64,000 nt of DNA. Origin: Clostridiaceae bacterium. Its GTDB lineage: Bacteria > Bacillota > Clostridia > Acetivibrionales > Acetivibrionaceae. The stretch lies in NCBI GenBank assembly GCA_012519925.1, contig JAAYPF010000007.1, positions 16,232-80,231 on the forward strand, read 5' to 3'. Both the position numbers and the translations under genes were made by a program. Of this stretch, positions 9,518-61,590 are shown in pieces; the stretch's first letter is position 1; each line of letters starts with the position of its first letter. The notes under the pieces were generated by a model. That model was not told where the DNA came from and made no database searches. It saw only the letters and a list, made by a program, of their open reading frames with translations.

Positions 9518-9593
9518 GGGGCTATAGCGCAGCTGGGAGCGTATCACACTGGCAGTGTGGGGGTCAGGGGTTCGAACCCCCTTAGCTCCACCA
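9518..9593 (+). tRNA. tRNA-Ala (GGC)
   Basis: GGGGCTA/TAGCTCC acceptor stem with G3:U70, anticodon loop CTGGCAG, TTCGAAC T-loop, encoded CCA; 76 nt. Confidence 0.98.
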
Positions 9594-16653: not shown

Positions 16654-16767
16654 TTCAATTATTAAGGAGTATATGTACAAGACTGCATGCAAATTAGCTA
16701 TAAAAATGGAAAATATGTATTTACATATTAATTTTAGTAATATATAATGTTATCGAAACAACTGAAT

Positions 16768-16857
16768 AAATTGCTAGGGGTGCCATTTGGCTGAGAAAGA
16801 GTAAATCTCTTGACCCTTTGAACCTGATGCGGTTAATGCCGACGTAGGGAAGCTAAA
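16768..16857 (+). promoter_or_regulatory. TPP (THI-box) riboswitch
   Basis: GGGGTGCC...GCTGAGA...GACCCTTTGAACCTGATGCGGTTAATGCCGACGTAGGGAAG consensus upstream of the thi operon. Confidence 0.96.
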
Positions 16858-16879
16858 GTAGATATGTAATGCATTTATG

Positions 16880-30312: not shown

Positions 30313-30313
30313 G

Positions 30314-30446
30314 TTTTCTAAGAAAGTGCATTGATTTTCTAAAAAAATAAAACCTTGAGTTGCAGAAGACGCAAGGCTTTCAAAAGAAATGTAAAAGTGT
30401 ACCATGCGGGGGTTAAACGGGGCGTAGCCCCCTTTATTCTCTTTAA
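30314..30446 (+). repeat. Intergenic repeat family B, copy 1
   Basis: Near-identical to 61457-61590 (2 mismatches in the first ~90 nt by manual alignment). Confidence 0.92.
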
Positions 30447-30681
30447 TCTGGTGGCTTAGTTCTTAGAATAATATGCATTTACACGGCGGTGAGTACCTAT
30501 TAAGCTTTGAAAGCTCTTTTAGACCCTCATTAATTTCATGCAATCACCACTATAGCTTTTACCGAGTCATTCCCCTCTCTTATGTCAATATAAGTGGGGA
30601 TGTTTTATGTTTAATGTAATACGTACATAATAAAAAATAATATCGAGTCACTTATTAACTAAGAAGGATTTTTTCACTATT

Positions 30682-31287: not shown

Positions 31288-33969
31288 GTGAGCACAATTA
31301 ATAATTCCAGCAAAAATTTATCAATAAAATCACCTTCAAATATACTAGTATTGTTACTTTTTCTAGCTATAAGTCTTTTTAGCAGAATACATAATATACC
31401 ATTCTCTTATGGTGTAAACTTCACTTTGAGTAGTTTGTTTATTTTTATAATACTAAGGTATTATGGGTTGATGGTTGCGTGTTCTGCAATAGGGATTATT
31501 AATATACTTGATTGGAGTTTATTTAATGGAAGCATATACACGATATTTATGTTTCTAGAGGTGTTATTAGTAGGCTGTTTGTGGAAAAAAAGGCAGCGAA
31601 ATTTATTTGTTCTTGATGCTTTTTATTGGGGTATAATTGGAGGTCCTTTTGCAACTTTAGTATTTTATATGATTAGAGGTACTGTTAATGTAGAAGGGTT
31701 GCTTATTGTTTCAAACATAGTTATAAATGGACTTATTAATGTGTTCCTTGCTGATATTTTGATTTCTTATATACCAATTCAAAGGATTTTTGGATATAGA
31801 GACAAAGGGCATATTGATTTAAACAAAATGATATTTCATTTAACAGTGGCAGCAGTTTTAGGTCCCTTTTTAGCATATACCTTTGTTGATACATGGTTTT
31901 CGAAGGCTAGTTTGGAGTTGGATATTTTTCAAAATATGAATTCCACTAAAGTAAATATAACTGAGAAGCTTAAGACCTGGGAAGACAGTGACTTTCAGAA
32001 GCTTCGCCTAAAATCTCCCATATATATAAATAGGTTTAAGACAGCTCTTAGCAGTAATCCATTAAATAATTCAGTTGAAGTATTGCTAGCGGATAATAAG
32101 AGTAATATATATTTTACAAGTAATGAGGATAAATATGGAAAAAACTACAACTGGAGAGAATGCGGAGTTTATTTAGAAATTGATGATAATGTATATGAGT
32201 GGTATCCTGAGTATAGCGGCGTAACAACAGATTTGAGCCGTTGGAGTAAAGCTTTTTATATAATGATTATTCCTTTTAATTCGGTGGATATTCAGCTACA
32301 AATAAAAGTTCCATTATCACAATACGCAGAGGATGTATGGAAGACCTATCTGAATAAATTTTTAATATTATTGTTTTTCTGCTTTGTATCGGCGATTATT
32401 TCGACGATGACTAGCACGTTTGTATCAAGAGATCTTTCAAAACTGACTAAAAGTTCAACGGGTCTTCCGGAAAAGCTTAAACGTCAAGAGGTAATTGAAT
32501 GGCCACGTACATCTATTAGTCAGGTTAATTCGTTAGTATCGAATTTTCAGGTTATGTCAGATAATCTTGTGGATTTATTTACTGAAGCGAAAATTATGAA
32601 TAATCAACTTTTATCACAAACAAAAGAACTGGAATTGTCAAGGGAAAAAATGAAGCACTTAGCTTATAACGATGTTTTGACAGGACTACCAAACCGACTA
32701 AGTTTTAATGTTTATCTCGAGAATCTTCTCAATACCGAACAAAGTAGAAATTTAGCAGTTATGTTTATAGATTTGAATAGATTTAAGCATATAAATGATA
32801 CTCTTGGTCATGAATATGGAGACATGTTGATAAAGGAAGTTGCAAAGAGATTGAGCTATTTTTTAAAAGATGACAGCTTTGTGGCAAGACTTGGAGGTGA
32901 TGAGTTTGTAGTTGTTTTAAATAATGCTGATATGAGGAGAGCAAAGAAATCAGCTATCTATATTAATAAAATACTTACAGAACCTTTCTTTATTAATCAA
33001 GATAATGAAATGCATGAATTATATGTGTCAGCAAGTGTAGGAATAAGTATGTGTCCTGAAGACGCTTTTGAAAAGTCAACATTATTAAAATATGCGGATC
33101 TTGCGATGTATGCTGCAAAAGAAAGCGGGGACAATACATTCAGATTTTACTCTGAAATAACCAAGTCAAACATGGCAGAAAAGCTTTTGCTGGAACAAAG
33201 TTTATGTAAGGCATTAGAAAGAAAAGAAATTATTATATATTACCAACCGAAAGTTAATGTTCAAACAAAGGAAATCACCGGTATGGAAGCGTTGATACGG
33301 TGGAATCATCCGCAAAGAGGTATGATATCACCAGCCCAATTCATTCCTTTAGCTGAAGAGACAGGTATAATAAATCAGATAGGAGAATGGGTTCTTATTG
33401 AGGCGTGTAAGCAGACTAAGAAGTGGCAAGATATGGGGTTCCCTAAAATGCGTATTTCAGTGAACTTATCCATTAGGCAGTTCTATGGGAACAATATTGT
33501 AAGGTTGGTTTCAAAAGCATTGGATATATCAGGTTTGGAGCCTAAATACTTGGAATTGGAGATTACAGAAGGTTTTCTTATTAAGAATACAAAGTATATT
33601 ATATCGATTTTACAGGAAGTTAGAGATATGGGTGTATATATATCAATTGATGATTTTGGTATTGGCTATTCATCCTTTTGCAGGCTTAAAGAACTTCCAG
33701 TACAGATTTTAAAAATAGATAAGAGTCTAATAACTGACATTTTAAAGGAGAAAATGAACGGTTCAATTGTAAAGGCTATTATAGAACTTGCCCACTCAAT
33801 GGGACTTAAAGTTGTGGCGGAAGGTGTTGAGACGATTGAAGAATTTCACGCATTGGCATTGTTAGAATGTGATGAAATTCAAGGTTACTTATTTTCAGAA
33901 CCACTGCCTGTAATTGAATTTGAAAAACTGGTAAGAAGCTTTGAATTTTGGGTGGATGTAACAAACTAA
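31288..33969 (+). CDS. Membrane-bound diguanylate cyclase/phosphodiesterase (multi-TM sensor, extracytoplasmic loop, GGDEF, EAL)
   Basis: DVLTGLPNR, DLNRFKHIND, ARLGGDEF; YYQPKV, MEALIRW, DDFGIGYSS, LKIDKS, AEGVET, IQGYLFSEP. Confidence 0.94.
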   Translation: MSTINNSSKNLSIKSPSNILVLLLFLAISLFSRIHNIPFSYGVNFTLSSLFIFIILRYYGLMVACSAIGIINILDWSLFNGSIYTIFMFLEVLLVGCLWKKRQRNLFVLDAFYWGIIGGPFATLVFYMIRGTVNVEGLLIVSNIVINGLINVFLADILISYIPIQRIFGYRDKGHIDLNKMIFHLTVAAVLGPFLAYTFVDTWFSKASLELDIFQNMNSTKVNITEKLKTWEDSDFQKLRLKSPIYINRFKTALSSNPLNNSVEVLLADNKSNIYFTSNEDKYGKNYNWRECGVYLEIDDNVYEWYPEYSGVTTDLSRWSKAFYIMIIPFNSVDIQLQIKVPLSQYAEDVWKTYLNKFLILLFFCFVSAIISTMTSTFVSRDLSKLTKSSTGLPEKLKRQEVIEWPRTSISQVNSLVSNFQVMSDNLVDLFTEAKIMNNQLLSQTKELELSREKMKHLAYNDVLTGLPNRLSFNVYLENLLNTEQSRNLAVMFIDLNRFKHINDTLGHEYGDMLIKEVAKRLSYFLKDDSFVARLGGDEFVVVLNNADMRRAKKSAIYINKILTEPFFINQDNEMHELYVSASVGISMCPEDAFEKSTLLKYADLAMYAAKESGDNTFRFYSEITKSNMAEKLLLEQSLCKALERKEIIIYYQPKVNVQTKEITGMEALIRWNHPQRGMISPAQFIPLAEETGIINQIGEWVLIEACKQTKKWQDMGFPKMRISVNLSIRQFYGNNIVRLVSKALDISGLEPKYLELEITEGFLIKNTKYIISILQEVRDMGVYISIDDFGIGYSSFCRLKELPVQILKIDKSLITDILKEKMNGSIVKAIIELAHSMGLKVVAEGVETIEEFHALALLECDEIQGYLFSEPLPVIEFEKLVRSFEFWVDVTN

Positions 33970-33989
33970 TAGCTGAAAGGAGTTTTAAA

Positions 33990-35297
33990 ATGGGAAAAGT
34001 ATTTAAGTTTGCTTTGATTTTGGCATTAGTGTTTAGTTTGACTCTTAGTATAGCATGTAATAAAAGGTTTGAAGATGTGGAGGGAACTACAGATACAACT
34101 GATAATGTGGGACAAGAGGCTCAGATTGAAGCTACCAAGCAGGATGTTGAAATTGAAATGTGGGGTTGGTTTAGCTTTGGAGGTTCTATCAGTACATTTG
34201 AAGAGAAGACTGGTATAAAAGTAAAAGAAAAAATTATTCCTTTTCACGAGTGCAAAAATGAATATATGAAGGCACTTGCAAATGGTACAGGACCTGATTT
34301 GCTTGTGTTTGATAGTAGTTTCTTTGGACAATATACAGTAAACAATATTCTTGAGAATTTACTTGATGAGCCTTATAAAGCAGAAAAATACAAGGGAGAT
34401 ATTATTGGTTGGGAAAGTGGTTTTTCCCTTGATAACAAACAATTACTGTCCCTTTCATATTCAACAGCTCCTTATATAACTATGTATAGAGAGGATATAA
34501 TGAGGGAAAATGGTTTTCCGTCGGAACCTGAAGAATTTGGAAAGTTTATTGAGCATCCGGATAACATATTGAAAGTGAGTAAAAAGCTTAAAGAACAAGG
34601 AAAATTTATTTTTCAATATCCTACTGATATAACAGATATAGTGGGTGCAACAATGGGCTATTTTGATGAGGAATTTAATTATATACGTGAAGGAGAGATG
34701 TATGCAAAAGCTATAGATATGGCACAAGAGATGTATGATAATGACTTGATATCAAATAAGAACTTTTGGAACGATACGGGTAAAAAAGCAGTTAATGAGG
34801 ATAAGCTTGTTATGTTTTTTCTAGCATCCTATGCGATGGATGAATTAGAGAAAATGGCTCCTGATCAAAAAGGAAAATGGAGAGTTACGACATCACCTTT
34901 AGGGATAGCGGCGTGGGGTTCGGATACAAGACTATCTATAAATGCCCATAGTGAACACAAAGAAGAAACATGGAAGCTTATTGAACATCTCGTAACTTCT
35001 GTGAATTGGACAGTTAATGTTGTGCCTTCGTATATTCCGGCTACAACATATAACGAATATTTGTCACAACAAAAAGACTTCTTTGGGGGACAAAATGTTT
35101 ATCCCATGTTAGTTGATTTAGCTATAAATATGAATCAATATAAATTGACTCCTTTAGATGAAGAAGTACGCGAGTTGTATCTAAAAGGGATTTGGCAATC
35201 ACTTTTAGATACAAAGAATTCACATGATAAGATTGAACAGATGAGAAAGGAAATAGAAAAAGAGCTTGAAGAGGAAAAGAATGTTTTATTAGAATAG
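33990..35297 (+). CDS. Carbohydrate-type extracellular solute-binding lipoprotein without adjacent permease
   Basis: RBS AAGGAG before ATG 33990, lipobox LSIAC, GPDLLV, YREDI, GKWRV, EETWKLIEHL patterns. Confidence 0.85.
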   Translation: MGKVFKFALILALVFSLTLSIACNKRFEDVEGTTDTTDNVGQEAQIEATKQDVEIEMWGWFSFGGSISTFEEKTGIKVKEKIIPFHECKNEYMKALANGTGPDLLVFDSSFFGQYTVNNILENLLDEPYKAEKYKGDIIGWESGFSLDNKQLLSLSYSTAPYITMYREDIMRENGFPSEPEEFGKFIEHPDNILKVSKKLKEQGKFIFQYPTDITDIVGATMGYFDEEFNYIREGEMYAKAIDMAQEMYDNDLISNKNFWNDTGKKAVNEDKLVMFFLASYAMDELEKMAPDQKGKWRVTTSPLGIAAWGSDTRLSINAHSEHKEETWKLIEHLVTSVNWTVNVVPSYIPATTYNEYLSQQKDFFGGQNVYPMLVDLAINMNQYKLTPLDEEVRELYLKGIWQSLLDTKNSHDKIEQMRKEIEKELEEEKNVLLE

Positions 35298-35432: not shown

Positions 35433-36275
35433 ATGAAGGAAATATCTAGAATTATTAGAAAATTATATAACTCATATACAAAGATGCCAATGAAATTGAG
35501 ATTTTTACTTGTACTGACTTTTTTTGTGCTGCTTTTTGTTTTTAGTGTAAGTATCAACCAAAATGTGGTCAATGAAGAGAACCAAAATAATGAATCTAAT
35601 AATATTAAGAACGGCAGAGAAAATGGAGAAGGTAGGCCTAATGAAGTCGATAATTCCACACCAATTACTAAAGAGGTTACAGTTGTGATAGATCCCGGAC
35701 ATGGAGGAGAAGATTTAGGAGCTACAAAAGGTGATTTATACGAAAAAAAGCTGAATTTGGATATATCACTAAAGATGGGAAAATTACTCGAAGACTTAGG
35801 GGTTAATGTGGTTTATACTAGGGATAAAGACATTGACGTAGGTCTAGATGAAAGAGTCAATATCGCTAACAGAATTAATGCGGCACTTTTTATAAGTGTA
35901 CATAATAATTATATGCCAAATGATGCAGGATATAAGGGTACTGAGACTTTGTACTGTACCCCTGTTGATACTGACGAAAACAAGATGGACGGACAGAAAC
36001 TCGCAGCAATTGTTCAAAATAAACTTGTCAGTACATTAAAGACTGTAGACAATGGTACAATATACAGACCGAATCTTGTAGTGCTTAGAAAAACCAATAT
36101 GCCAGCTGTGATTGCAGAGATCGCTTATATGTCAAATTCCTCCGACAGAGCAAAGCTTACAGATGAGGGGTTTAGGCAGAAGGCAGCAGAAGCTTTAACG
36201 GAAGCAGTTATGGAGGCTTTTAAGTTTATGAAAGTGGAAAAGGATGAAAGCGGAGAATGGATGTTTATGGATTAA
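35433..36275 (+). CDS. N-acetylmuramoyl-L-alanine amidase (Amidase_3), membrane anchored (start uncertain: 35361, 35433 or later)
   Basis: VIDPGHGG, EKKLNL, ERVNIAN, SVHNN, LVVLRKTNMPAVIAEIAYMSN. Confidence 0.92.
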   Translation: MKEISRIIRKLYNSYTKMPMKLRFLLVLTFFVLLFVFSVSINQNVVNEENQNNESNNIKNGRENGEGRPNEVDNSTPITKEVTVVIDPGHGGEDLGATKGDLYEKKLNLDISLKMGKLLEDLGVNVVYTRDKDIDVGLDERVNIANRINAALFISVHNNYMPNDAGYKGTETLYCTPVDTDENKMDGQKLAAIVQNKLVSTLKTVDNGTIYRPNLVVLRKTNMPAVIAEIAYMSNSSDRAKLTDEGFRQKAAEALTEAVMEAFKFMKVEKDESGEWMFMD

Positions 36276-44000: not shown

Positions 44001-44134
44001 AGTATAGGAATTTATAAAAACACTAGTTTTTGTAAATTCCTATACTGGGGATTGACAAGAGGATTCACTTGTCCGTTTTAAGGAGGGTACACCGGATGCG
44101 AAGCATCCGTCGAAGGGAACCATAGGGTTCCCTA
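44001..44134. other. Four-hairpin element upstream of pta
   Basis: 21-bp stem 44001-44046; GACAAG/CTTGTC; CGGATGC-GAA-GCATCCG; AGGGAACC/GGTTCCCT. Confidence 0.6.
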
Positions 44135-54870: not shown

Positions 54871-56244
54871 ATGAATAGTAAGTTTTTAAGAAGAGCTGCA
54901 TCCTTAGCAGTAAGTGGTCTAATGATTACTTCGCTAATGGCGGGTTGCAACAATGAATCGAAGAATCCAGACAAGACAGCTGATCCAACACAACCACCAG
55001 TCTCTACAGATGCAGGACAATCAGCTAAAAAGCCAGAAGACTTTACTGGTACACTTGTAGTTGGACACTTTAACGACGATGAAGCATCAAAGCTTGTTGC
55101 TGCATTTAAGGAAAAGTATCCTAATGTGGACGTAAAATTGGAAATCACAGCTGACACAGATGGTGCCTATCAAACATTAATTACTTCAGCATTAAGATCT
55201 GGTCAGAACGTACCTGACGTATACGCATCAGAGGTAGCATTCGTTAAGAGATTTGTTAATCTCTCTGACGGTTATGAAGATCTTACACCTTATTTTGAAG
55301 GGGATTTAAAATCTAAATTAGTTCCTTATACAATTGATATCGGTACTAGTGATGACGGAAAAATCAGAGCATTATCCCATCAAGCAGCTGCAGCGGCTGT
55401 AGGATATAAAAGGGATATGGCTAAACAATATCTTGGAACTGATGATCCTGAAGAAATAGGTAAATTGTTCTCATCTGCAGATGAAATTGTTAAAACAGGT
55501 AAAAAGCTTCAAGAAGTAAGTGGTAAAAAAGCAATATTATTCCCGGGTATGGCTGAGTTAATGAGAATGTACTTAGGTGCTCGTGACCACGCTTGGGTAG
55601 AAGACGGTAAATTGACAATAGATCCTAAAATGGAAGAGTTTGTAGACGTTGCTAAGCAGTTGAGAGATGCAGGTGCTGAAGGCGGATTGCCAGCATGGGA
55701 ACCTCAATGGTCAGCAGCAATAACAGATGATATACATTTCGCATATGCAATACCAACATGGGGTGTGCCATGGATTATCGATGCTAACCAACCAGAAGAT
55801 AGAAAAAATAAAGGCGATTGGGGTCTTGCAAAAGCTCCAGCTCCATATACTTGGGGAGGTACTTGGTTTGGAATGTACAGTAAGAGTCCAAACAAAGAAC
55901 TTGCTTGGGAATTCATAAAATTCATTACTCTTGATGAAGAGCAATCAATAGCTTGGGCTAAGAAGAGTGGTGACTTTATAAGTAACCTTGCAGCTATCGA
56001 AACTCTATCAAATGATCCAGAAATGGTAAGTGAAACTACAAATCAAAACCCATATGAATTCTTTGGTCCTATGATAAAGGATATAAACGGTGCAATTATA
56101 ACAGAGCATGACGATAAGATTACAAATGCATTCCAAGATGCTATGCTTACGTATCTTGCAGGTAATACTACAAAAGACCAAATGTGGGCTCAGTTCAAGG
56201 ATCAAGTTAGAAGTGACCTTGGAGATAAAGTAACAGTAGAATAA
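54871..56244 (+). CDS. Sugar ABC transporter solute-binding lipoprotein (probable cellodextrin-binding CbpB-like by position)
   Basis: Lipobox LMAGC, flexible linker, YKRD, GDWGLA, WGGTW, AWEFIKF; followed by two permeases. Confidence 0.88.
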   Translation: MNSKFLRRAASLAVSGLMITSLMAGCNNESKNPDKTADPTQPPVSTDAGQSAKKPEDFTGTLVVGHFNDDEASKLVAAFKEKYPNVDVKLEITADTDGAYQTLITSALRSGQNVPDVYASEVAFVKRFVNLSDGYEDLTPYFEGDLKSKLVPYTIDIGTSDDGKIRALSHQAAAAAVGYKRDMAKQYLGTDDPEEIGKLFSSADEIVKTGKKLQEVSGKKAILFPGMAELMRMYLGARDHAWVEDGKLTIDPKMEEFVDVAKQLRDAGAEGGLPAWEPQWSAAITDDIHFAYAIPTWGVPWIIDANQPEDRKNKGDWGLAKAPAPYTWGGTWFGMYSKSPNKELAWEFIKFITLDEEQSIAWAKKSGDFISNLAAIETLSNDPEMVSETTNQNPYEFFGPMIKDINGAIITEHDDKITNAFQDAMLTYLAGNTTKDQMWAQFKDQVRSDLGDKVTVE

Positions 56245-56289
56245 TTGGCAATAAGGTAGTAAAAATATTTATTAATTTGAATTTCTCTA

Positions 56290-56321
56290 TTGCCCTATTA
56301 CCCATTTGGGTAGTAGGGCAA
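56290..56321 (+). other. Intercistronic stem-loop between binding protein and permease
   Basis: TTGCCCTATTACCCA / TGGGTAGTAGGGCAA, no T tract. Confidence 0.7.
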
Positions 56322-56347
56322 AGAATTAATATGGGAGGTTATATTCT

Positions 56348-57268
56348 TTGTTTAAGAGTTTATCTAAAAATGATAAATACGCCCATTACGGATATTTGTT
56401 TATATTGCCTTTTTTTATTGTTATGGCTATATTTATTGTATATCCTATACTCAATACTATTTACTTAAGTTTTACAGTTTGGGAAGGAGCTACTATACCA
56501 CCGGAATGGGTTGGCTTAAAAAACTATCGGAGACTTTTTCAAGATTTTTTGCAAGGAGGAATTTTTCCTCAAAGTATAAAAAACACTTGGATTTTGTGGA
56601 TATTTAATGTTATTCCTCAGTTTATAGGTGCTTTAGCTTTAGCTATCTTATTGACAGACAAACACAATAGGATAAAAGGAAAAGAAGGGTTTAGGGCTAT
56701 TTTCTATTTGCCAAATCTTATTACAATGGCTTCGGTAGGGGCTTTGTTTGCTTTTCTTTTAGGACATCCAAAAGGAGCTGTAAATGATCTTTTAGTGGCT
56801 TTTAATATATTGAAAGAGCCATTTAATTTTCTGCAGAATGCTTGGGCGACTAGGTTATCTATTTCTACAATTCTGACATGGATGTGGTTTGGATATACTA
56901 TGATCATATTTATGGCAGGAATAAAAGCTATTCCTGAGGAATTGTTTGAAGCAGCTAGGGTTGATGGAGCCACAAAATGGCAAACATTTAAGAGTATTAC
57001 TCTACCTCAGCTTAGACCTATTATGACTTATCAAGTTGTAACGTCGATCATTGGTGGACTTAGTATGTATGATATTCCACAAGTATTGACAAATGGTACA
57101 GGAGCTCCCCAAAATTCAGTAACTACAATGGTAATGCACATCTACAGACAAGGATTTACTAACTATAATTTAGGATATGCCTCGGCTGTAGCTATTGGAC
57201 TTTTTGTGCATATATTTATTGTTGTTTTTATAGCACTTAGATTTATTAATCCAAAAGAAGATGTATAA
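56348..57268 (+). CDS. Carbohydrate ABC transporter permease 1
   Basis: WVGLKNY, FRAIFYLP, EAARVDGA (EAA motif), ITLPQL, LGYASA. Confidence 0.93.
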   Translation: MFKSLSKNDKYAHYGYLFILPFFIVMAIFIVYPILNTIYLSFTVWEGATIPPEWVGLKNYRRLFQDFLQGGIFPQSIKNTWILWIFNVIPQFIGALALAILLTDKHNRIKGKEGFRAIFYLPNLITMASVGALFAFLLGHPKGAVNDLLVAFNILKEPFNFLQNAWATRLSISTILTWMWFGYTMIIFMAGIKAIPEELFEAARVDGATKWQTFKSITLPQLRPIMTYQVVTSIIGGLSMYDIPQVLTNGTGAPQNSVTTMVMHIYRQGFTNYNLGYASAVAIGLFVHIFIVVFIALRFINPKEDV

Positions 57269-57283
57269 GGGGGAAGAGATTTA

Positions 57284-58123
57284 ATGGGTAAAAAAGGTGC
57301 TTTTAGACTTAGTATAGGGGATATTCTTTTATACATTTTCTTAATAGGACTGGCAGTTATATGTTTTCTACCATTCTACTTTATGATTATAAATGCAACA
57401 CATGATAATGCCGCTATTGCTCGAGGAATGAACTTACTTCCCGGAAAATATGCTATAGACAATTATTTAAAGATGAAATCTAGGGTTAATATATGGATAG
57501 GCTTTAGAAACAGCCTTATTGTTTCTGGAGTTGGTACTGCTTTGCTTGCTTATTTCGGTACATTAACCGCTTACGGTTTTTCTAAGTACAAATTTGTTGG
57601 TAATAAGGCACTATTCTGGGTTATATTATGCTCTATGATGGTTCCGCCTCAACTTAGTGTAATTGGTTTTTATGATGTTGTTCAGAAGTTAAAATTGATG
57701 AATAATTTATTGGCGCTCATTATACCAATGATAGCTAGTGCTCAGTTTGTTTATTTTGTAAAGTTGTATTTAGATTCTGCACTTCCAGATTCTATTGTAG
57801 AGTCTGCAAGGATAGATGGAGCAACTGAAATTGGCATATTTAATAAAATGGTATTGCCAATAGCTAGTCCTTCTATCGCGACAATGGGTATGTTTAATTT
57901 TATAAACTCATGGAATCAACTGTTGATTCCTCAGATAGTTATAAGAGATGAAAAACTTAGAACTGTACCTATTATTGTTGCTAATGCAAAAGGTGTATAC
58001 AGGACAGACTTTGCAGCTGCGTATATGGCAATTGCTCTTTCTGTTGTACCTATATTAATAGCATTTGCTTTCTTTTCAAAATATATCATAGGTGGAGTTA
58101 CTGCTGGTTCAGTAAAGGGATAG
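57284..58123 (+). CDS. Carbohydrate ABC transporter permease 2
   Basis: FRNSLIV, AYGFSK, MVPPQ, ESARIDGA, SWNQLL, GSVKG end. Confidence 0.93.
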   Translation: MGKKGAFRLSIGDILLYIFLIGLAVICFLPFYFMIINATHDNAAIARGMNLLPGKYAIDNYLKMKSRVNIWIGFRNSLIVSGVGTALLAYFGTLTAYGFSKYKFVGNKALFWVILCSMMVPPQLSVIGFYDVVQKLKLMNNLLALIIPMIASAQFVYFVKLYLDSALPDSIVESARIDGATEIGIFNKMVLPIASPSIATMGMFNFINSWNQLLIPQIVIRDEKLRTVPIIVANAKGVYRTDFAAAYMAIALSVVPILIAFAFFSKYIIGGVTAGSVKG

Positions 58124-58164
58124 TAATAAGAGAGTATTGTCAAATTCGAAAAAAAATTTGGGTA

Positions 58165-58197
58165 AAAAAAGTGAGTAGGGTTTCTACTCACTTTTTT
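58165..58197. terminator. Bidirectional terminator
   Basis: AAAAAAGTGAGTAG / CTACTCACTTTTTT between convergent genes. Confidence 0.88.
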
Positions 58198-58357
58198 GTC
58201 ATTAATGGGTTTTGTTTTGCAACAGTATAGAAAAATATTATTATTTGCTAAAATGAATTAGTCAAAAATTTAAGGTGATAAAATAAAGAGATATCTTTAT
58301 TAACAAGAGTGAATAAGAAAATTTTAAAATTACAGCATATACCTAAAAAGAAGAGTT

Positions 58358-58864
58358 TTAACTAAAAGCTTTTCTATTAAAGGTTTTTATAATGCTTAGG
58401 AGCTCGCTGTCAGGTTCAAAGTATACAATAACCTTATTACTATTGTAATGGGTTACAAAAAAGTGTGCATCTTTCGAATTCATTGAACTTACAGCATAAA
58501 TTTTAGAAATTTCACTATTAACCGATAGTTTGTGCCTTTCACTTGAGACCTTATCAAGCATTTCAAACTGCCTGCAGCTCCCGAAAAAAACTCTCTTCCT
58601 TTTTCTTCTTGATATTATTTTAGTTATCTCTAAATCTCCAGATGTAAGCGAGTATTCATACTCAATATTTCTTCCTGTAATAATTATATAACCGGCATAT
58701 GCTATAGCTGCTACAAACGCTAACCCTACTCCAAAATATAGTGGTCCAGCTATTGATATTATTAAAAAAGCAACAATAAATGATATTATAATGGTACCCA
58801 AAATAATTAGGTAATCTTTATAATCTTTCTTTTTCTCAATGATTCTTTCAGTAAACAAATCCAT
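58358..58864 (-). CDS. Hypothetical membrane protein with two TM helices and PH-like tail (resembles DUF6106)
   Basis: RBS GGAG before MDLFTE; two hydrophobic helices, then IEYEYSLTSGDLEITKI...RKRK...FEPD. Confidence 0.7.
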   Translation of the reverse strand: MDLFTERIIEKKKDYKDYLIILGTIIISFIVAFLIISIAGPLYFGVGLAFVAAIAYAGYIIITGRNIEYEYSLTSGDLEITKIISRRKRKRVFFGSCRQFEMLDKVSSERHKLSVNSEISKIYAVSSMNSKDAHFFVTHYNSNKVIVYFEPDSELLSIIKTFNRKAFS

Positions 58865-59195
58865 TTTATCATCTCCATAGTTATAAGTATTTCTAATTTT
58901 ATCTTCAAACTGAATATAAATCAAGTGCTTAACTGATACAAACTAGAAAGCTAATTATTATACTTATTGAAATTAGTGTTCCTGAAATAGAATTTATTGA
59001 AGGGAGTACGGTAAATTATTAATAGTACGGTATACATAATTTTTAGTTGTAAATAAAATTCCTATGGGAATTTTACTTAAGTTAATGTAAAATATATAGT
59101 AATATAGCTTCTGATAATAAGTTTGTTATTACTATTTTTTACAAAGGGTTAAGGCATTCTTTCTAGAAGGGTGAAAGGAGTAAGTATTTAATATT

Positions 59196-59792
59196 ATGAT
59201 TAGAAAAAAGATAGAGAATTTTTGGTATTATCATAAAGTAAAAGTATTTGTAGGTATTTTTGCGTTTATAGCAATTCTTGTAATAAGTGCTGCTGACTCA
59301 GGTGGGGAAGCCGACCTTGAAATTGGTTATATTATTGGCGAAAGTGAAATTGTTTTACAGAATGTAAATGAAAAAATGTCTGCTTTAGAGGAGCTAATAG
59401 AAGCTAAAGATAAGCAAAAAGCTGTGATTTCAGTTGTTCCATTGACGAGTTCACGATTGGAGTTAGAGTTTGCTATAGGTATATCTCATATCCTTCTATT
59501 AGATAAAGAAACCCTAGTACCCTTTGCAAAATATCGATTTTTTGAGTCACTTGACAATTATGTAGATAAATACGATATTGATATTAGCGATTATGCAGAA
59601 GTGAAAGCAGATCCTGATAACAAAAATGAATATAGGGTTTATGCTTTGCCAGTAAAAGAAATGGATATACTTTTAGAAATGGGATTTCCTGAAGATTACT
59701 ATTTTACCATAAGACTTCCTAAGGAAGATGAAAGTGATGATGTTATGAGAAATAAAAATGCACATATTATTTTAGACTATCTTTTAGATTAA
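59196..59792 (+). CDS. Hypothetical membrane-anchored protein resembling a partial solute-binding fold
   Basis: ENFWYYHK plus TM helix; ILLLD...ESLDNY...VYALPV. Confidence 0.7.
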   Translation: MIRKKIENFWYYHKVKVFVGIFAFIAILVISAADSGGEADLEIGYIIGESEIVLQNVNEKMSALEELIEAKDKQKAVISVVPLTSSRLELEFAIGISHILLLDKETLVPFAKYRFFESLDNYVDKYDIDISDYAEVKADPDNKNEYRVYALPVKEMDILLEMGFPEDYYFTIRLPKEDESDDVMRNKNAHIILDYLLD

Positions 59793-59878
59793 TAGATTAA
59801 AAAAATATTGCTGTTTACTATTTAAGAAAACTTAAATTAGTAGCTTGTTGGCAATAAATTCCGTATAAAAAAGTATAA

Positions 59879-59919
59879 AAGTTGAAATTTTTCATGATTT
59901 AGATTAAGATAAAATTAAG
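59879..59919 (+). promoter_or_regulatory. Sigma-A-like promoter of the second sugar-binding protein
   Basis: TTGAAA-17 nt-TAAGAT; matches 54748-54788. Confidence 0.6.
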
Positions 59920-60044
59920 AGGTGATTTCTTTTACATAATTAAGTACATTCTATGTAAGTGATTTCTCGAAAAATTAAAGTATGGGTGTTTAGTATTTTG
60001 CAGGATACATGTTACAAATTTCATTATGTACTAGGGGGATAAAT

Positions 60045-61421
60045 ATGCTTAAAAAAGTAATTTTATTTTTACTAATTTCGTCGTTTTCGCTAAGCTTTGT
60101 TGCATGTGGTAAAGAAACTAAAACTCCGAAATCTACAACAGCACCTGATAATGTTCAAGAAAATAAAGAATTGCATGGATCGGCTTCTTTTTCGGGTAAT
60201 ATCAAGTTTTGGATTATGCCAAATAGTGCTTCTCCTGATAAAGACTTGTTGAGTGTGTGTCAACCTTTCCTAGATGCAAATCCGGAGGTGACAATTACAC
60301 CTACGGTTATAGGTTGGGAAGCTGCGTGGAGAAGACTTACTGCTGCAGCTACTACTGGAGATGCTCCAGATATAGCTCAGCTTGGAACAACATGGGTGGG
60401 TGCGATTTCCTACATGGAAGCATTGGAAGACTTATCTGAAGATATTGACTGGAGTAAGTTTCAAGCTTCAGTTTTAGACACATCTTCTCTTCTAGGTTCA
60501 GATAAAAAGACCGCAGTACCATGGTTTGCTGAGACAAGAGCGATTTTTTACAGAAAGGATGCTTGTGAAAAGGCAGGTGTTAATCCAGAAACTGATTTTG
60601 CTACTTGGGATAAATTCAAAGAAGCCTTACAGAAACTAAATAACATCGAAATTGATGGCGTGAAATTACCAGCACTTGGTATGCCTGGGAAAAATGATTG
60701 GAACGTTCTTCATAATTTCGCACCGTGGATTTATGGAGCTGGTGGAGACTTCCTGTCGGTTGATGGCAAAGAAGCTACATTTAATTCGCCACAAGCTTTA
60801 GAAGGCATTAAATTTTATTCAGAGCTTGCTTTGGAAGGGCTAATGGATAAAGCATCCTTAGAAAAGAGTACGAATGATGTCGAATTTGCATTTTCAAATG
60901 GAGCTTATGCTGTTTCGATATTAGGACCATGGAATATAACTACTTTTGAGAAAAATAAAGAGCAAGGAATTAATGAGCTTGCCGACAAGATAGGGGTTGC
61001 TTTGATTCCGGAAGGTCCTGGTGGTAGAAAAGCATTTTTAGGAGGGAGTACACTTTCTGTATTCAAATCATCAAAGAATAAAGAAGCTTCTATAGCACTT
61101 CTAGAATATTTAACGGATAAAGAAGCCCAAATCGAATATGCTAAAATTACCGGTAACCTCCCTACAAATAAGGAAGCTTATGGAGATGATTCGATATCAG
61201 GTCATGAGATGCGTAAGGTATTCAAAGAGCAAATGCAGTATGCAAAAGCTTATCCATCAATTGCTTCATGGGGACCTGCCGAGAATTATTTCAAAGAAGG
61301 GTTGAGCAAGATATGGGATAATGTCATGGGCTTAAATGGAGCATATAATTACGATGCTACTAAGAAAGCGGTTGATGAAGTAGTCGACAAGGTTAATAGT
61401 ATTATAGAAGAAACGAAATAA
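60045..61421 (+). CDS. Stand-alone sugar-binding lipoprotein (ABC family 1)
   Basis: Lipobox FVAC, APDIAQLG, VPWFAETRAIFYRKD, FLGGSTL, GNLP; followed by a terminator. Confidence 0.88.
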   Translation: MLKKVILFLLISSFSLSFVACGKETKTPKSTTAPDNVQENKELHGSASFSGNIKFWIMPNSASPDKDLLSVCQPFLDANPEVTITPTVIGWEAAWRRLTAAATTGDAPDIAQLGTTWVGAISYMEALEDLSEDIDWSKFQASVLDTSSLLGSDKKTAVPWFAETRAIFYRKDACEKAGVNPETDFATWDKFKEALQKLNNIEIDGVKLPALGMPGKNDWNVLHNFAPWIYGAGGDFLSVDGKEATFNSPQALEGIKFYSELALEGLMDKASLEKSTNDVEFAFSNGAYAVSILGPWNITTFEKNKEQGINELADKIGVALIPEGPGGRKAFLGGSTLSVFKSSKNKEASIALLEYLTDKEAQIEYAKITGNLPTNKEAYGDDSISGHEMRKVFKEQMQYAKAYPSIASWGPAENYFKEGLSKIWDNVMGLNGAYNYDATKKAVDEVVDKVNSIIEETK

Positions 61422-61428
61422 TATATAT

Positions 61429-61460
61429 AAGGATATTTTTGAAATATCCTTTATTTTTTT
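61429..61460 (+). terminator. Terminator of the stand-alone binding protein gene
   Basis: AAGGATATTT / AAATATCCTT stem plus T tract. Confidence 0.75.
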
Positions 61461-61590
61461 CTAAGAAAGTGCATTGATTTTCTAAAAAAATAAAACCTTG
61501 AGTCGCAGAAGACGCAAGGTTTTCAAAAGAAATGTAAAAGTGTACCATATGGGTTTTAAACGGGGCGTAGCCGCTTTTGTTCTTTTTTAA
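61457..61590 (+). repeat. Intergenic repeat family B, copy 2
   Basis: Near-identical to 30314-30446; AAAACCTTG-A-GTC-GCAGAA-GAC-G-CAAGGTTTT hairpin. Confidence 0.92.

Follow-up and report, generated by a model that had tools for sequence, protein, structure and literature searches.

The window analyzed here, a stretch of 64,000 nucleotides from a Clostridiaceae bacterium, carries two adjacent genes, one for a membrane-bound GGDEF-EAL enzyme and one for a sugar-type solute-binding lipoprotein, which form a nonrandom, conserved unit and probably make up a single sensory device, in which the ligand-binding lipoprotein would dock on the ectodomain of the enzyme and switch c-di-GMP turnover. In this mechanism, the membrane-tethered lipoprotein would capture a ligand outside the cell, with an oligosaccharide as the most likely candidate, and dock, in its liganded or its unliganded form, on the predicted Cache/PDC-like ectodomain of the enzyme, a membrane-bound dimer. 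From there, the signal would pass through the last transmembrane helix (TMH) and a HAMP-like linker to the catalytic domains, where it would shift the balance between c-di-GMP synthesis by the GGDEF domain and hydrolysis by the EAL domain, with each binding state presumably favoring one of these activities. Such a device is of interest given that few of the inputs to c-di-GMP enzymes are known, above all in Gram-positive bacteria. The features of the pair are collected in Table 1.

Table 1. Positions of the gene pair, its domains and motifs, and the neighboring downstream gene in the window
Feature	Position	Strand	Details
Membrane sensor GGDEF-EAL enzyme	31288..33969	+	893 aa; open reading frame, Pfam GGDEF and EAL
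N-terminal bundle of ~7 TMHs	31339..31896	+	aa 18-203; AlphaFold2, hydropathy
Extracytoplasmic domain	31897..32340	+	aa 204-351; stalk helix and one small alpha/beta module, predicted Cache/PDC-like
Last TMH (aa 352-375) and HAMP-like helical linker (aa 376-455)	32341..32652	+	model, hydropathy
GGDEF domain	32662..33135	+	aa 459-616; Pfam 1.9e-42
KDDS replacing the RxxD I-site	32866-32877	+	aa 527-530
GGDEF motif	32893-32907	+	aa 536-540
EAL domain	33196..33903	+	aa 637-872; Pfam 1.3e-75
Shine-Dalgarno GAAAGGAG	33975..33982	+	7 nt ahead of the lipoprotein ATG, within the 20-nt gap
Putative transporter-less family-1 (CUT1-type) solute-binding lipoprotein	33990..35297	+	435 aa
Lipobox Cys23	34056-34058	+	Cys23 invariant in 31 homologs
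CwlD-like amidase gene	35433-36275		downstream of the lipoprotein gene

The junction between the two genes is as the original prediction had described it, with 20 nt between the TAA stop codon of the enzyme gene (33967 to 33969) and the ATG of the lipoprotein gene (33990), a ribosome-binding site for the latter, and no permease or ATPase gene next to the pair, whose 3' neighbors encode the CwlD-like amidase, an M50B peptidase, and LigA. No terminator-like site was found between the two genes or past the lipoprotein gene. At the other end of the pair, the annotated GTG start of the enzyme (31288) lies only 3 nt past GAAAGG and is replaced by GCG at the same site in the closest relative; an in-frame ATT at 31297, located 5 nt past AGGTGA, is conserved in a comparison with two relatives (L005 and L006), and the true start may be this ATT.

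Hydropathy and the AlphaFold2 model of the enzyme (pLDDT 83, pTM 0.78) agree with the several N-terminal TMHs and the large extracytoplasmic segment that had been predicted from the sequence. About seven N-terminal TMHs are followed by an extracytoplasmic stretch of ∼145 amino acids (residues 204 to 351) and a further TMH (residues 352 to 375), with K/R-rich loops on the predicted cytoplasmic side, a positive-inside pattern. The TMH bundle has no Pfam match beyond noise in any of 42 family members, and the N-terminal module of the window enzyme matched nothing from Pfam or NCBIfam. Its fold weakly resembles that of RibU, an ECF S-component (TM-score on target of 0.65, E value of ∼0.01), which we take as a description of its shape only and not as an assignment to that family. 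In the model, the ectodomain consists of helices up to residue 255 and then six strands between residues 264 and 342, and its Foldseek matches are the sensor domains of WalK, DctB, CitA, TlpB, and PctB. Pfam dCache_1 does not match the window enzyme and gave a single marginal match (E value of 0.028) among the 42 family members. The NCBIfam alignments begin at the last TMH (YfiN, residues 352 to 611; LapD, residues 349 to 874), and the subsequent linker, which is not matched by Pfam HAMP, has a conserved W405-P406 and N419.

In product-inhibited diguanylate cyclases, an RxxD I-site is found five residues before the GGDEF motif. The original prediction of an intact GGDEF motif without this site, with KDDS in its place, and of an intact EAL set was borne out residue by residue, and the absence of the I-site extends to the whole family, where G/SGDEF is kept in 43 of 43 enzymes and RxxD in none of the 43. 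The EAL set is complete (EALIR at 667, N726 in SVNLS, ELEITE at 756, DDFG at 788, KIDKS at 809, EGVE at 845, and QGY at 865), and each of the 36 family members with an EAL domain retains E[AVCS]L..R. With both sites intact, the motifs fit a bifunctional enzyme. The EAL domain is absent from seven relatives, in which the lipoprotein would gate synthesis only.

The lipoprotein begins with the signal peptide MGKVFKFALILALVFSLTLSIAC and matches Pfam SBP_bac_8 (1.6e-16) and SBP_bac_1 (3.5e-09). Its closest solved relatives by profile and fold are all carbohydrate binders, although they are only 16 to 19% identical to it, and no polyamine binder appears among its best 60 sequence matches or its best 50 fold matches. 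The fold is shared with the CUT1 oligosaccharide-binding proteins Lin1841, CebE, BlG16BP, and CbpB (TM-scores of 0.65 to 0.81; Foldseek E values of 1e-18 to 1e-21), with a profile E value of 9.5e-25 for Lin1841; these proteins are, however, encoded with permeases, which the window lipoprotein is not. Sequence and fold relatives thus agree with the carbohydrate-type binding protein of the original prediction, and by both measures the lipoprotein classifies as a member of the carbohydrate type (CUT1, family 1). From relatives at this distance, the ligand is most likely an oligosaccharide, and naming a cello- or xylo-oligosaccharide would be a guess. If the ligand is a fragment of a plant polysaccharide, the pair would make attachment, motility, or matrix formation in biomass-degrading Firmicutes responsive to the presence of substrate.

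To assess the conservation of the pair, we surveyed 79 loci seeded from the binding protein, clustering six neighbors at each. A full homolog of the N-terminal sensor fused to GGDEF, with or without EAL, lies directly upstream on the same strand at 43 of these loci. Among the enzyme-linked loci, the sensor enzyme is the sole conserved neighbor, while the flanks vary (gpr, SbcCD, SNF2, and others); no conserved third component or output gene emerged from the clustered neighbors of the 79 loci. In the tree of binding proteins, the permease-linked sequences from Paenibacillus/Lederbergia form a clade of their own (26 rows, SH-aLRT of 99), apart from 56 nontransporter rows, none of which is permease linked and 47 of which are encoded directly behind a homolog of this sensor enzyme; these pairs are spread over no fewer than 17 genera of Clostridia and Bacilli. 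Cultured hosts of the pair include Pseudobacteroides cellulosolvens, Clostridium paraputrificum, Paenibacillus caseinilyticus, and Evansella. Seen from the sensor, and within the taxonomic order to which the window belongs, the binding protein is encoded directly downstream of 33 of the 35 short-ectodomain sensors that could be assessed; two short-type enzymes (L179 and L187) are followed by a MASE3-SpoIIE gene instead. The gap between enzyme and lipoprotein genes spans −23 to 132 nt across the family, with a median of 12.5 nt, and the two genes overlap in 12 cases. Co-conservation, on whose presence the original prediction had been made to depend, is therefore evident from the binding protein (47/56) as well as from the sensor (33/35), and the separate clade of permease-linked homologs agrees with its view that the binding protein is not of the transporter-linked type.

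Binding proteins can share the permeases and ATPases of other transporters, which leaves room for the lipoprotein being an ordinary transport protein for an ABC permease encoded elsewhere, with its adjacency to the enzyme reflecting shared regulation. It has the SBP_bac_1/SBP_bac_8 fold of CUT1 transport proteins, and nested clades in the tree have left the enzyme, including a paralog in the genome of the window itself that is 42% identical and has no linked enzyme. We nonetheless consider this explanation improbable, since none of the 43 enzyme-linked loci has a permease within about 8 kb, the enzyme-linked proteins stand phylogenetically apart from the permease-linked clade, the position immediately downstream of the sensor is so consistently kept, often with overlapping genes, and every ABC permease pair of the window's genome is already supplied with its own adjacent binding protein. 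We likewise give little credence to a dual role, in which the lipoprotein would feed a sugar transporter and also report its occupancy to the enzyme. About 20 kb downstream of the pair, the window does encode a carbohydrate transporter and, with it, two more binding proteins, and MBP-Tar, ChvE-VirA, and CBP-ChiS are precedents for such dual use (PMC8050422). However, dual-use proteins are usually encoded with the transporter and not with the receptor (PMC8050422), whereas here the linkage in almost every genome is to the receptor.

Pairwise identities of the binding protein and of the ectodomain correlate with an r of 0.81 (Mantel, 0 of 500) and with a partial r of 0.45 given the GGDEF domain, a co-divergence that is to some degree expected for any two linked genes with a common history. 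In genomes with two or three pairs, each binding protein and each sensor are closest to those of the same pair elsewhere and not to their in-genome paralogs. Judged from these comparisons, enzyme and binding protein diverge together, and the pairs behave as units in multipair genomes.

The sensor module is also found in relatives with the architecture dCache_1-PAS-GGDEF-EAL (e.g., L110 and L192), which are homologous across its whole length (hhalign probability of 100, E value of 7e-45, 25% identity). In these alignments, the window ectodomain pairs with the membrane-proximal half of the longer dCache_1 ectodomain, whose approximately 110 additional residues correspond to a membrane-distal Cache module that the window family lacks. 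The dCache_1 relatives usually also differ by added PAS domains and are 940 to 2,005 amino acids long, and none of 12 loci with a full dCache_1 ectodomain has an adjacent binding-protein homolog. One possible, though on balance doubtful, history is that a double-Cache c-di-GMP sensor of this lineage lost its distal Cache module, which bound the ligand, and outsourced recognition to a recruited CUT1 lipoprotein that docks on the proximal module, with tandem or unlinked paralogs allowing one enzyme to read several breakdown products of plant polysaccharides. If so, extracellular oligosaccharides would act directly on a c-di-GMP lifestyle switch in polysaccharide-degrading Firmicutes, cellulolytic ones included, by way of an undescribed 7-TMH sensor scaffold found across about 2,000 sequence clusters.

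Two histidine-kinase relatives (L114 and L115) have a similarly short ectodomain and no binding protein nearby, suggesting that the sensor module can work alone and that primary sensing may fall to the TMH bundle. The bundle is conserved over roughly 1,000 to 2,000 sequence clusters, 975 of them strong and many without a binding protein; the N-terminal sensor module merits its own family definition. These observations, together with the control of WalK, the best fold match, by accessory membrane proteins, speak for a lipoprotein that is only an accessory (a stabilizer, inhibitor, or chaperone) with a pocket unused in signaling, while the multi-TMH bundle or a ligand-binding ectodomain acts as the true sensor. 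We find this rather unlikely, because the lipoprotein is modeled with two well-folded lobes (pLDDT of 89) and Trp, Asp, and Arg columns of the binding proteins remain invariant or nearly so down to 28% identity, which suggests that the pocket is maintained. Moreover, two binding proteins stand in tandem behind the sensor in at least three of the short-ectodomain loci from the taxonomic order of the window, and such duplications are more readily explained by a diversifying ligand input than by a structural role.

As a proposed ligand-gated switch, the pair has its nearest counterpart in design in NspS-MbaA, where an SBP_bac_8 protein is likewise encoded beside a GGDEF-EAL enzyme of the inner membrane whose extracytoplasmic domain is Cache-like. 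MbaA has two TMHs, compared to about seven plus one in the window enzyme, and the genes are ordered nspS then mbaA, whereas the enzyme gene comes first in the window. NspS binds polyamines, in contrast to the oligosaccharide binders that are nearest to the window lipoprotein; the latter is a lipoprotein because, unlike NspS, it belongs to a Gram-positive host. The ectodomain of MbaA is dCache-like (PMC8050422), while that of the window enzyme appears to be a single small Cache/PDC-like module. The NspS-MbaA system, found in Vibrio cholerae and also in Sinorhizobium meliloti, relies on NspS to switch the enzyme (PMC8050422; bioRxiv 10.1101/2025.02.13.638143), and MbaA itself is bifunctional and regulated by polyamines (bioRxiv 10.1101/2025.02.13.638143). 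In the ScrB-ScrC system, encoded by scrABC of Vibrio parahaemolyticus, a binding protein gates the cyclase and phosphodiesterase modes of a GGDEF-EAL enzyme and thereby motility versus matrix production (PMC8050422). The gating of a membrane GGDEF-EAL enzyme by a binding protein is what our proposed system would share with it; ScrB, however, is an SBP_bac_3 protein that responds to a signal which the cell makes itself by means of ScrA, as opposed to the SBP_bac_8/SBP_bac_1 type of the window lipoprotein, the sensor architecture of ScrC is different, and no ScrA-like synthase gene is conserved beside the pair among the clustered neighbors of the 79 loci.

Within Clostridia and Bacillus, three-component sets of the XylFII-LytS/YesN type have a transporter-less sugar-binding protein for which a membrane sensor provides the docking site with its ectodomain (PMC8050422). 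The window pair resembles them in its occurrence in Firmicutes and in the coding of such a protein with a membrane sensor, but XylFII is a Peripla_BP_4 protein and not of family 1, and these sets have their output through a histidine kinase and a regulator of the AraC type acting on a transporter operon, compared to c-di-GMP turnover for the window pair. Neither a histidine kinase nor a response regulator lies beside the pair.

In a 2021 review, the only GGDEF-EAL receptors listed as stimulated by solute-binding proteins are those of MbaA-NspS and ScrC-ScrB, which are both gammaproteobacterial (PMC8050422). Neither of these two Vibrio systems senses sugars (PMC8050422), and we found no characterized example of such a pair in Firmicutes in the literature, as the original prediction had supposed. 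Its designation as a new system nevertheless overstates the case, since the pair is a new family on a known design. By analogy, it is best read as a binding-protein-gated c-di-GMP switch that would work like NspS-MbaA or ScrB-ScrC while being a member of neither family. The family offers a compact two-gene system with natural variants, namely, cyclase-only enzymes, tandem binding proteins, and full-Cache relatives.

Upstream of the enzyme gene lies a 1-kb leader free of open reading frames, in which no Rfam family of regulatory RNAs was detected; a hit to FuFi-1 (E value of 0.3) is noise. About 300 nt of this leader are a dispersed repeat insertion that is absent from close relatives, which rules out this stretch as a conserved leader. 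In the genome from which the window was taken, the GGDEF domain is matched about 25 times and the PilZ domain 11 times, and there are 5 c-di-GMP-I riboswitches. Behind these riboswitches there is one clear gene only, coding for a transglutaminase-like protein and located after a tandem riboswitch.

The membrane GGDEF-EAL enzyme of the window and the solute-binding lipoprotein encoded behind it (referred to as the binding protein here) form a well-supported, co-conserved sensory pair, for which a binding-protein-gated c-di-GMP switch is the best-supported reading. All points of the sequence-level observation were confirmed, and the two genes are arranged as in the original prediction: a putative RBS lies in the 20-nt gap after the enzyme's TAA stop, a consensus scan gave no terminator-like site between or behind the genes, and ORF calls and Pfam placed a CwlD-like amidase, an M50B peptidase and a DNA ligase behind the pair, with no permease or ATPase gene among these downstream genes. 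The annotated GTG start of the enzyme appears doubtful from sequence comparison, given that it lies only 3 nt behind a putative SD (GAAAGG) and reads GCG in the nearest relative (L005), in which ATG, GTG and TTG are all absent from the first 45 conserved codons. Five nt behind AGGTGA, at 31297, lies an in-frame ATT that is kept in all three sequences compared.

Positions of the gene pair, its putative ribosome-binding site and the RNA features of the window
Feature	Positions	Strand	Basis
Enzyme ORF, 893 aa	31288-33969	+	ORF call
Binding-protein ORF, 435 aa, ATG at 33990	33990-35297	+	ORF call
Putative RBS GAAAGGAG	33975-33982	+	Within 20-nt gap after enzyme TAA stop
TPP riboswitch	16766-16867		Rfam, above gathering score
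Clostridiales-2 sRNA	44040-44120		Rfam, above gathering score
tRNA	9518-9590		Rfam, above gathering score

Seeding from the binding protein, of which the protein database holds 71 homologues, we scanned one genome per prokaryotic species and retrieved 79 loci with flanks, in which upstream enzymes were sought by tblastn with separate parts of the window enzyme. Near-full-length matches to its N-terminal sensor module were obtained at 41 loci and partial matches at 2 more, and at all 43 the sensor module and a GGDEF domain, with or without EAL, are encoded directly upstream of the binding-protein gene on the same strand. The median gap between enzyme stop and binding-protein start is 12.5 nt (range, -23 to 132 nt), with an overlap at 12 loci. 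Carriers include Acetivibrio, Pseudobacteroides, Clostridium, Sarcina, Natronincola, Holtiella and Cellulosilyticaceae among the Clostridia, and Paenibacillus caseinilyticus, Evansella, Halalkalibacter, Litchfieldia, Salipaludibacillus and Sporosarcina among the Bacilli. When six neighbors of each of the 79 loci were clustered, the enzyme (43 members) was the only conserved partner, all else being variable. One locus (L058) lies on a contig labelled Candidatus Udaeobacter (Verrucomicrobiota), and its binding protein sits on a zero-length branch beside Paenibacillus sp. Soil522; the contig probably entered that MAG by contamination.

In a maximum likelihood tree of the binding proteins (quick IQ-TREE search, with SH-aLRT as the only support measure), 26 permease-linked Paenibacillus/Lederbergia rows form a clade with a support of 99. 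The remaining 56 rows include 47 that are enzyme linked and none that is permease linked. Nine rows are unlinked. Eight of them fall into two nested orphan clades, one made up of L011, L012, L081 and the paralogue from the window's genome and the other of L016, L019, L020 and L022; the ninth is L064, whose contig starts at the binding-protein gene. Neighbors of the checked orphans include a pfkB kinase, a LacI regulator and an OmpR-type two-component pair.

The reverse search was seeded from the sensor. The sensor module is present in 25 of 149 genomes of the window's own order, and the regions downstream of 39 matches were fetched; after setting aside three cut by contig ends and one long double-Cache relative, 35 enzymes with a short ectodomain remained. 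A binding-protein homologue lies directly downstream of 33 of them, with two in tandem behind at least three, so that the predicted co-occurrence across genomes holds from both sides (43/79 and 33/35). The two exceptions, L179 and L187, have a MASE3-SpoIIE gene instead. In L187, from Pseudobacteroides cellulosolvens, the enzyme is split into ORFs of 439 and 387 aa, and in the same genome the binding-protein gene of one pair (L013) is split into ORFs of 106 and 309 aa; these could be pseudogenes or sequencing errors.

Pairwise identities of the binding protein and its partner ectodomain are correlated (r = 0.81; as high in 0 of 500 Mantel permutations), with a partial r of 0.45 once the GGDEF domain was regressed out, and in 30 of 42 pairs both proteins have the same nearest neighbor. 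Where a genome has two or three pairs, binding protein and sensor are both closest to the same foreign pair rather than to paralogues in their own genome, so that pairs are duplicated and passed on as units. This co-divergence at the sequence level supports a direct interface between binding protein and ectodomain but falls short of proof, because linked genes share history anyway.

The Pfam models place the GGDEF domain at aa 459 to 616 (1.9e-42) and the EAL domain at aa 637 to 872 (1.3e-75) of the enzyme. Motif inspection agreed with the earlier description of an intact GGDEF (aa 536 to 540) preceded by KDDS in place of RxxD, and of a full set of canonical EAL motifs. Hydropathy and an AlphaFold2 model (pLDDT 83, pTM 0.78) likewise bear out the several N-terminal TM helices and the extracytoplasmic segment between TM helices, with about seven helices, an ectodomain (204 to 351), a last TM helix (352 to 375) and a helical HAMP-like linker. 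Among the 43 family enzymes, G/SGDEF is retained in all and an I-site was found in none; 36 have an EAL domain with an EAL-type motif, and 7 are cyclase only. Lacking an I-site, the cyclase has no built-in product feedback, which fits control by the sensor.

The binding protein matches SBP_bac_8 and SBP_bac_1 (Pfam) and starts with a signal peptide and a lipobox Cys23 that is invariant in 31 homologues. By its model (pLDDT 89) and sequence profile, it is nearest to family-1 oligosaccharide binders, the solved relatives being 5ixp, the Bifidobacterium beta-1,6-galactobiose protein, CebE with cellotriose, Lin1841 with sophoro-oligosaccharides, GltA and CbpB with cello-oligosaccharides. Since these best relatives by model and profile are oligosaccharide binders (TM-scores of 0.65 to 0.81, at only 16 to 19% identity), a carbohydrate is the likely ligand class.

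The lipoprotein may instead serve transport by sharing the permeases of another transporter. Against this, each BPD_transp_1 permease pair of the window's genome (99.98% complete, 253 contigs) has its own adjoining binding-protein gene, including an Opp-like set with an SBP_bac_5 protein, and no permease pair without one is apparent in this genome. A transport-type arrangement in the same genome is exemplified by region 54900-61200 of the window, which encodes a complete carbohydrate ABC transporter (binding protein, ~54931-55935; permeases, ~56640-58080) and a second binding protein of 475 aa at about 60267. The own-genome paralogue L002 (contig C50:584-1912) is 42% identical to the window binding protein and neighbors a class II aldolase (AraD-like) gene and a sugar-kinase-like gene, with no enzyme gene visible in the 583 nt that remain upstream before the contig ends. 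The relatives that carry the pair also carry its orthologues (L012, L081); L002 may feed the same enzyme as a second, unlinked input, or may be independent.

Pfam searches gave no match to the sensor module in the window protein and nothing above noise in 42 relatives. In the model, the ectodomain fold is similar to that of the single Cache/PDC sensor domains in WalK, DctB, CitA, TlpB and PctB, and the TM bundle shows a weak likeness to ECF S-components. A profile comparison with a 1,242-aa relative was collinear throughout (E, 7e-45) bar one block of ~110 residues, found in the long protein only and inside its Pfam dCache_1 match; of a double Cache, the window's family therefore retains the membrane-proximal half alone. 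Such long types belong to a large family of 940 to 2,005 aa (L109-L119, L192) that shares the unannotated 7-TM bundle and carries a full dCache_1 ectodomain, PAS and GGDEF-EAL; none of 12 long-type loci has an adjacent binding-protein homologue. Among 1.84 billion cluster representatives, the module occurred in 2,159 clusters (975 at E <= 1e-30), the best 150 of which are about half short type (600 to 620 or 850 to 915 aa) and half long types with the insertion (940 to 2,005 aa). In an even, phylum-wide sample of 400 genomes, the short type was found in the window's genome only, long GGDEF-EAL relatives in 12 others and histidine-kinase versions in two. The latter (L114, L115) lie beside an OmpR-type regulator; they have a similarly short ectodomain without a binding protein, so that this scaffold is able to signal by itself, and the TM bundle too may sense something.

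In a 2021 review of receptors stimulated by binding proteins, MbaA-NspS and ScrC-ScrB are the only GGDEF/EAL cases listed; both are gamma-proteobacterial with dCache-like ectodomains, the former using SBP_bac_8 (polyamines) and the latter SBP_bac_3 (PMC8050422). No system like this pair is mentioned in a 2022 census of c-di-GMP sensory inputs (PMC8846402), and a full-text literature search found no paper on the family. By analogy, the pair may work like NspS-MbaA, as a proposed binding-protein-gated GGDEF-EAL switch, but it differs in the type of binding protein, in receptor architecture and in the ectodomain. To this design the family adds a new sensor scaffold and a carbohydrate-type binding protein, as well as a contrast between Cache-truncated members with a linked binding protein and full-Cache members without one.

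In the proposed mechanism, the tethered lipoprotein would report ligand occupancy to the small ectodomain, and the last TM helix and HAMP-like linker would relay this signal to the GGDEF-EAL tandem. The original prediction is supported in part: linkage, tree and co-divergence uphold its sensory pair, while we infer ligand, contact, switch direction and phenotype. With about 25 GGDEF-domain matches, 11 PilZ-domain matches and 5 c-di-GMP-I riboswitches in the genome, the pair is one of many c-di-GMP inputs. Two of these riboswitches lie in tandem (L194, C86:11751-12009; 86 and 81 bits) and are followed by a gene for a 292-aa transglutaminase-like protein; no long ORF is evident behind the three others.

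An insertion at 30313-30610, in the ORF-free leader that separates gpr from the enzyme gene, is absent from the two closest relatives and has no Rfam match. It consists of dispersed repeats, with a second copy at about 61457-61587: one unit of ~127 nt has at least 18 genome copies (92 to 98% identity), several at contig ends, and another of ~110 nt has about 10 (73 to 87%). By sequence, the insertion looks like a MITE/REP-type intergenic element.
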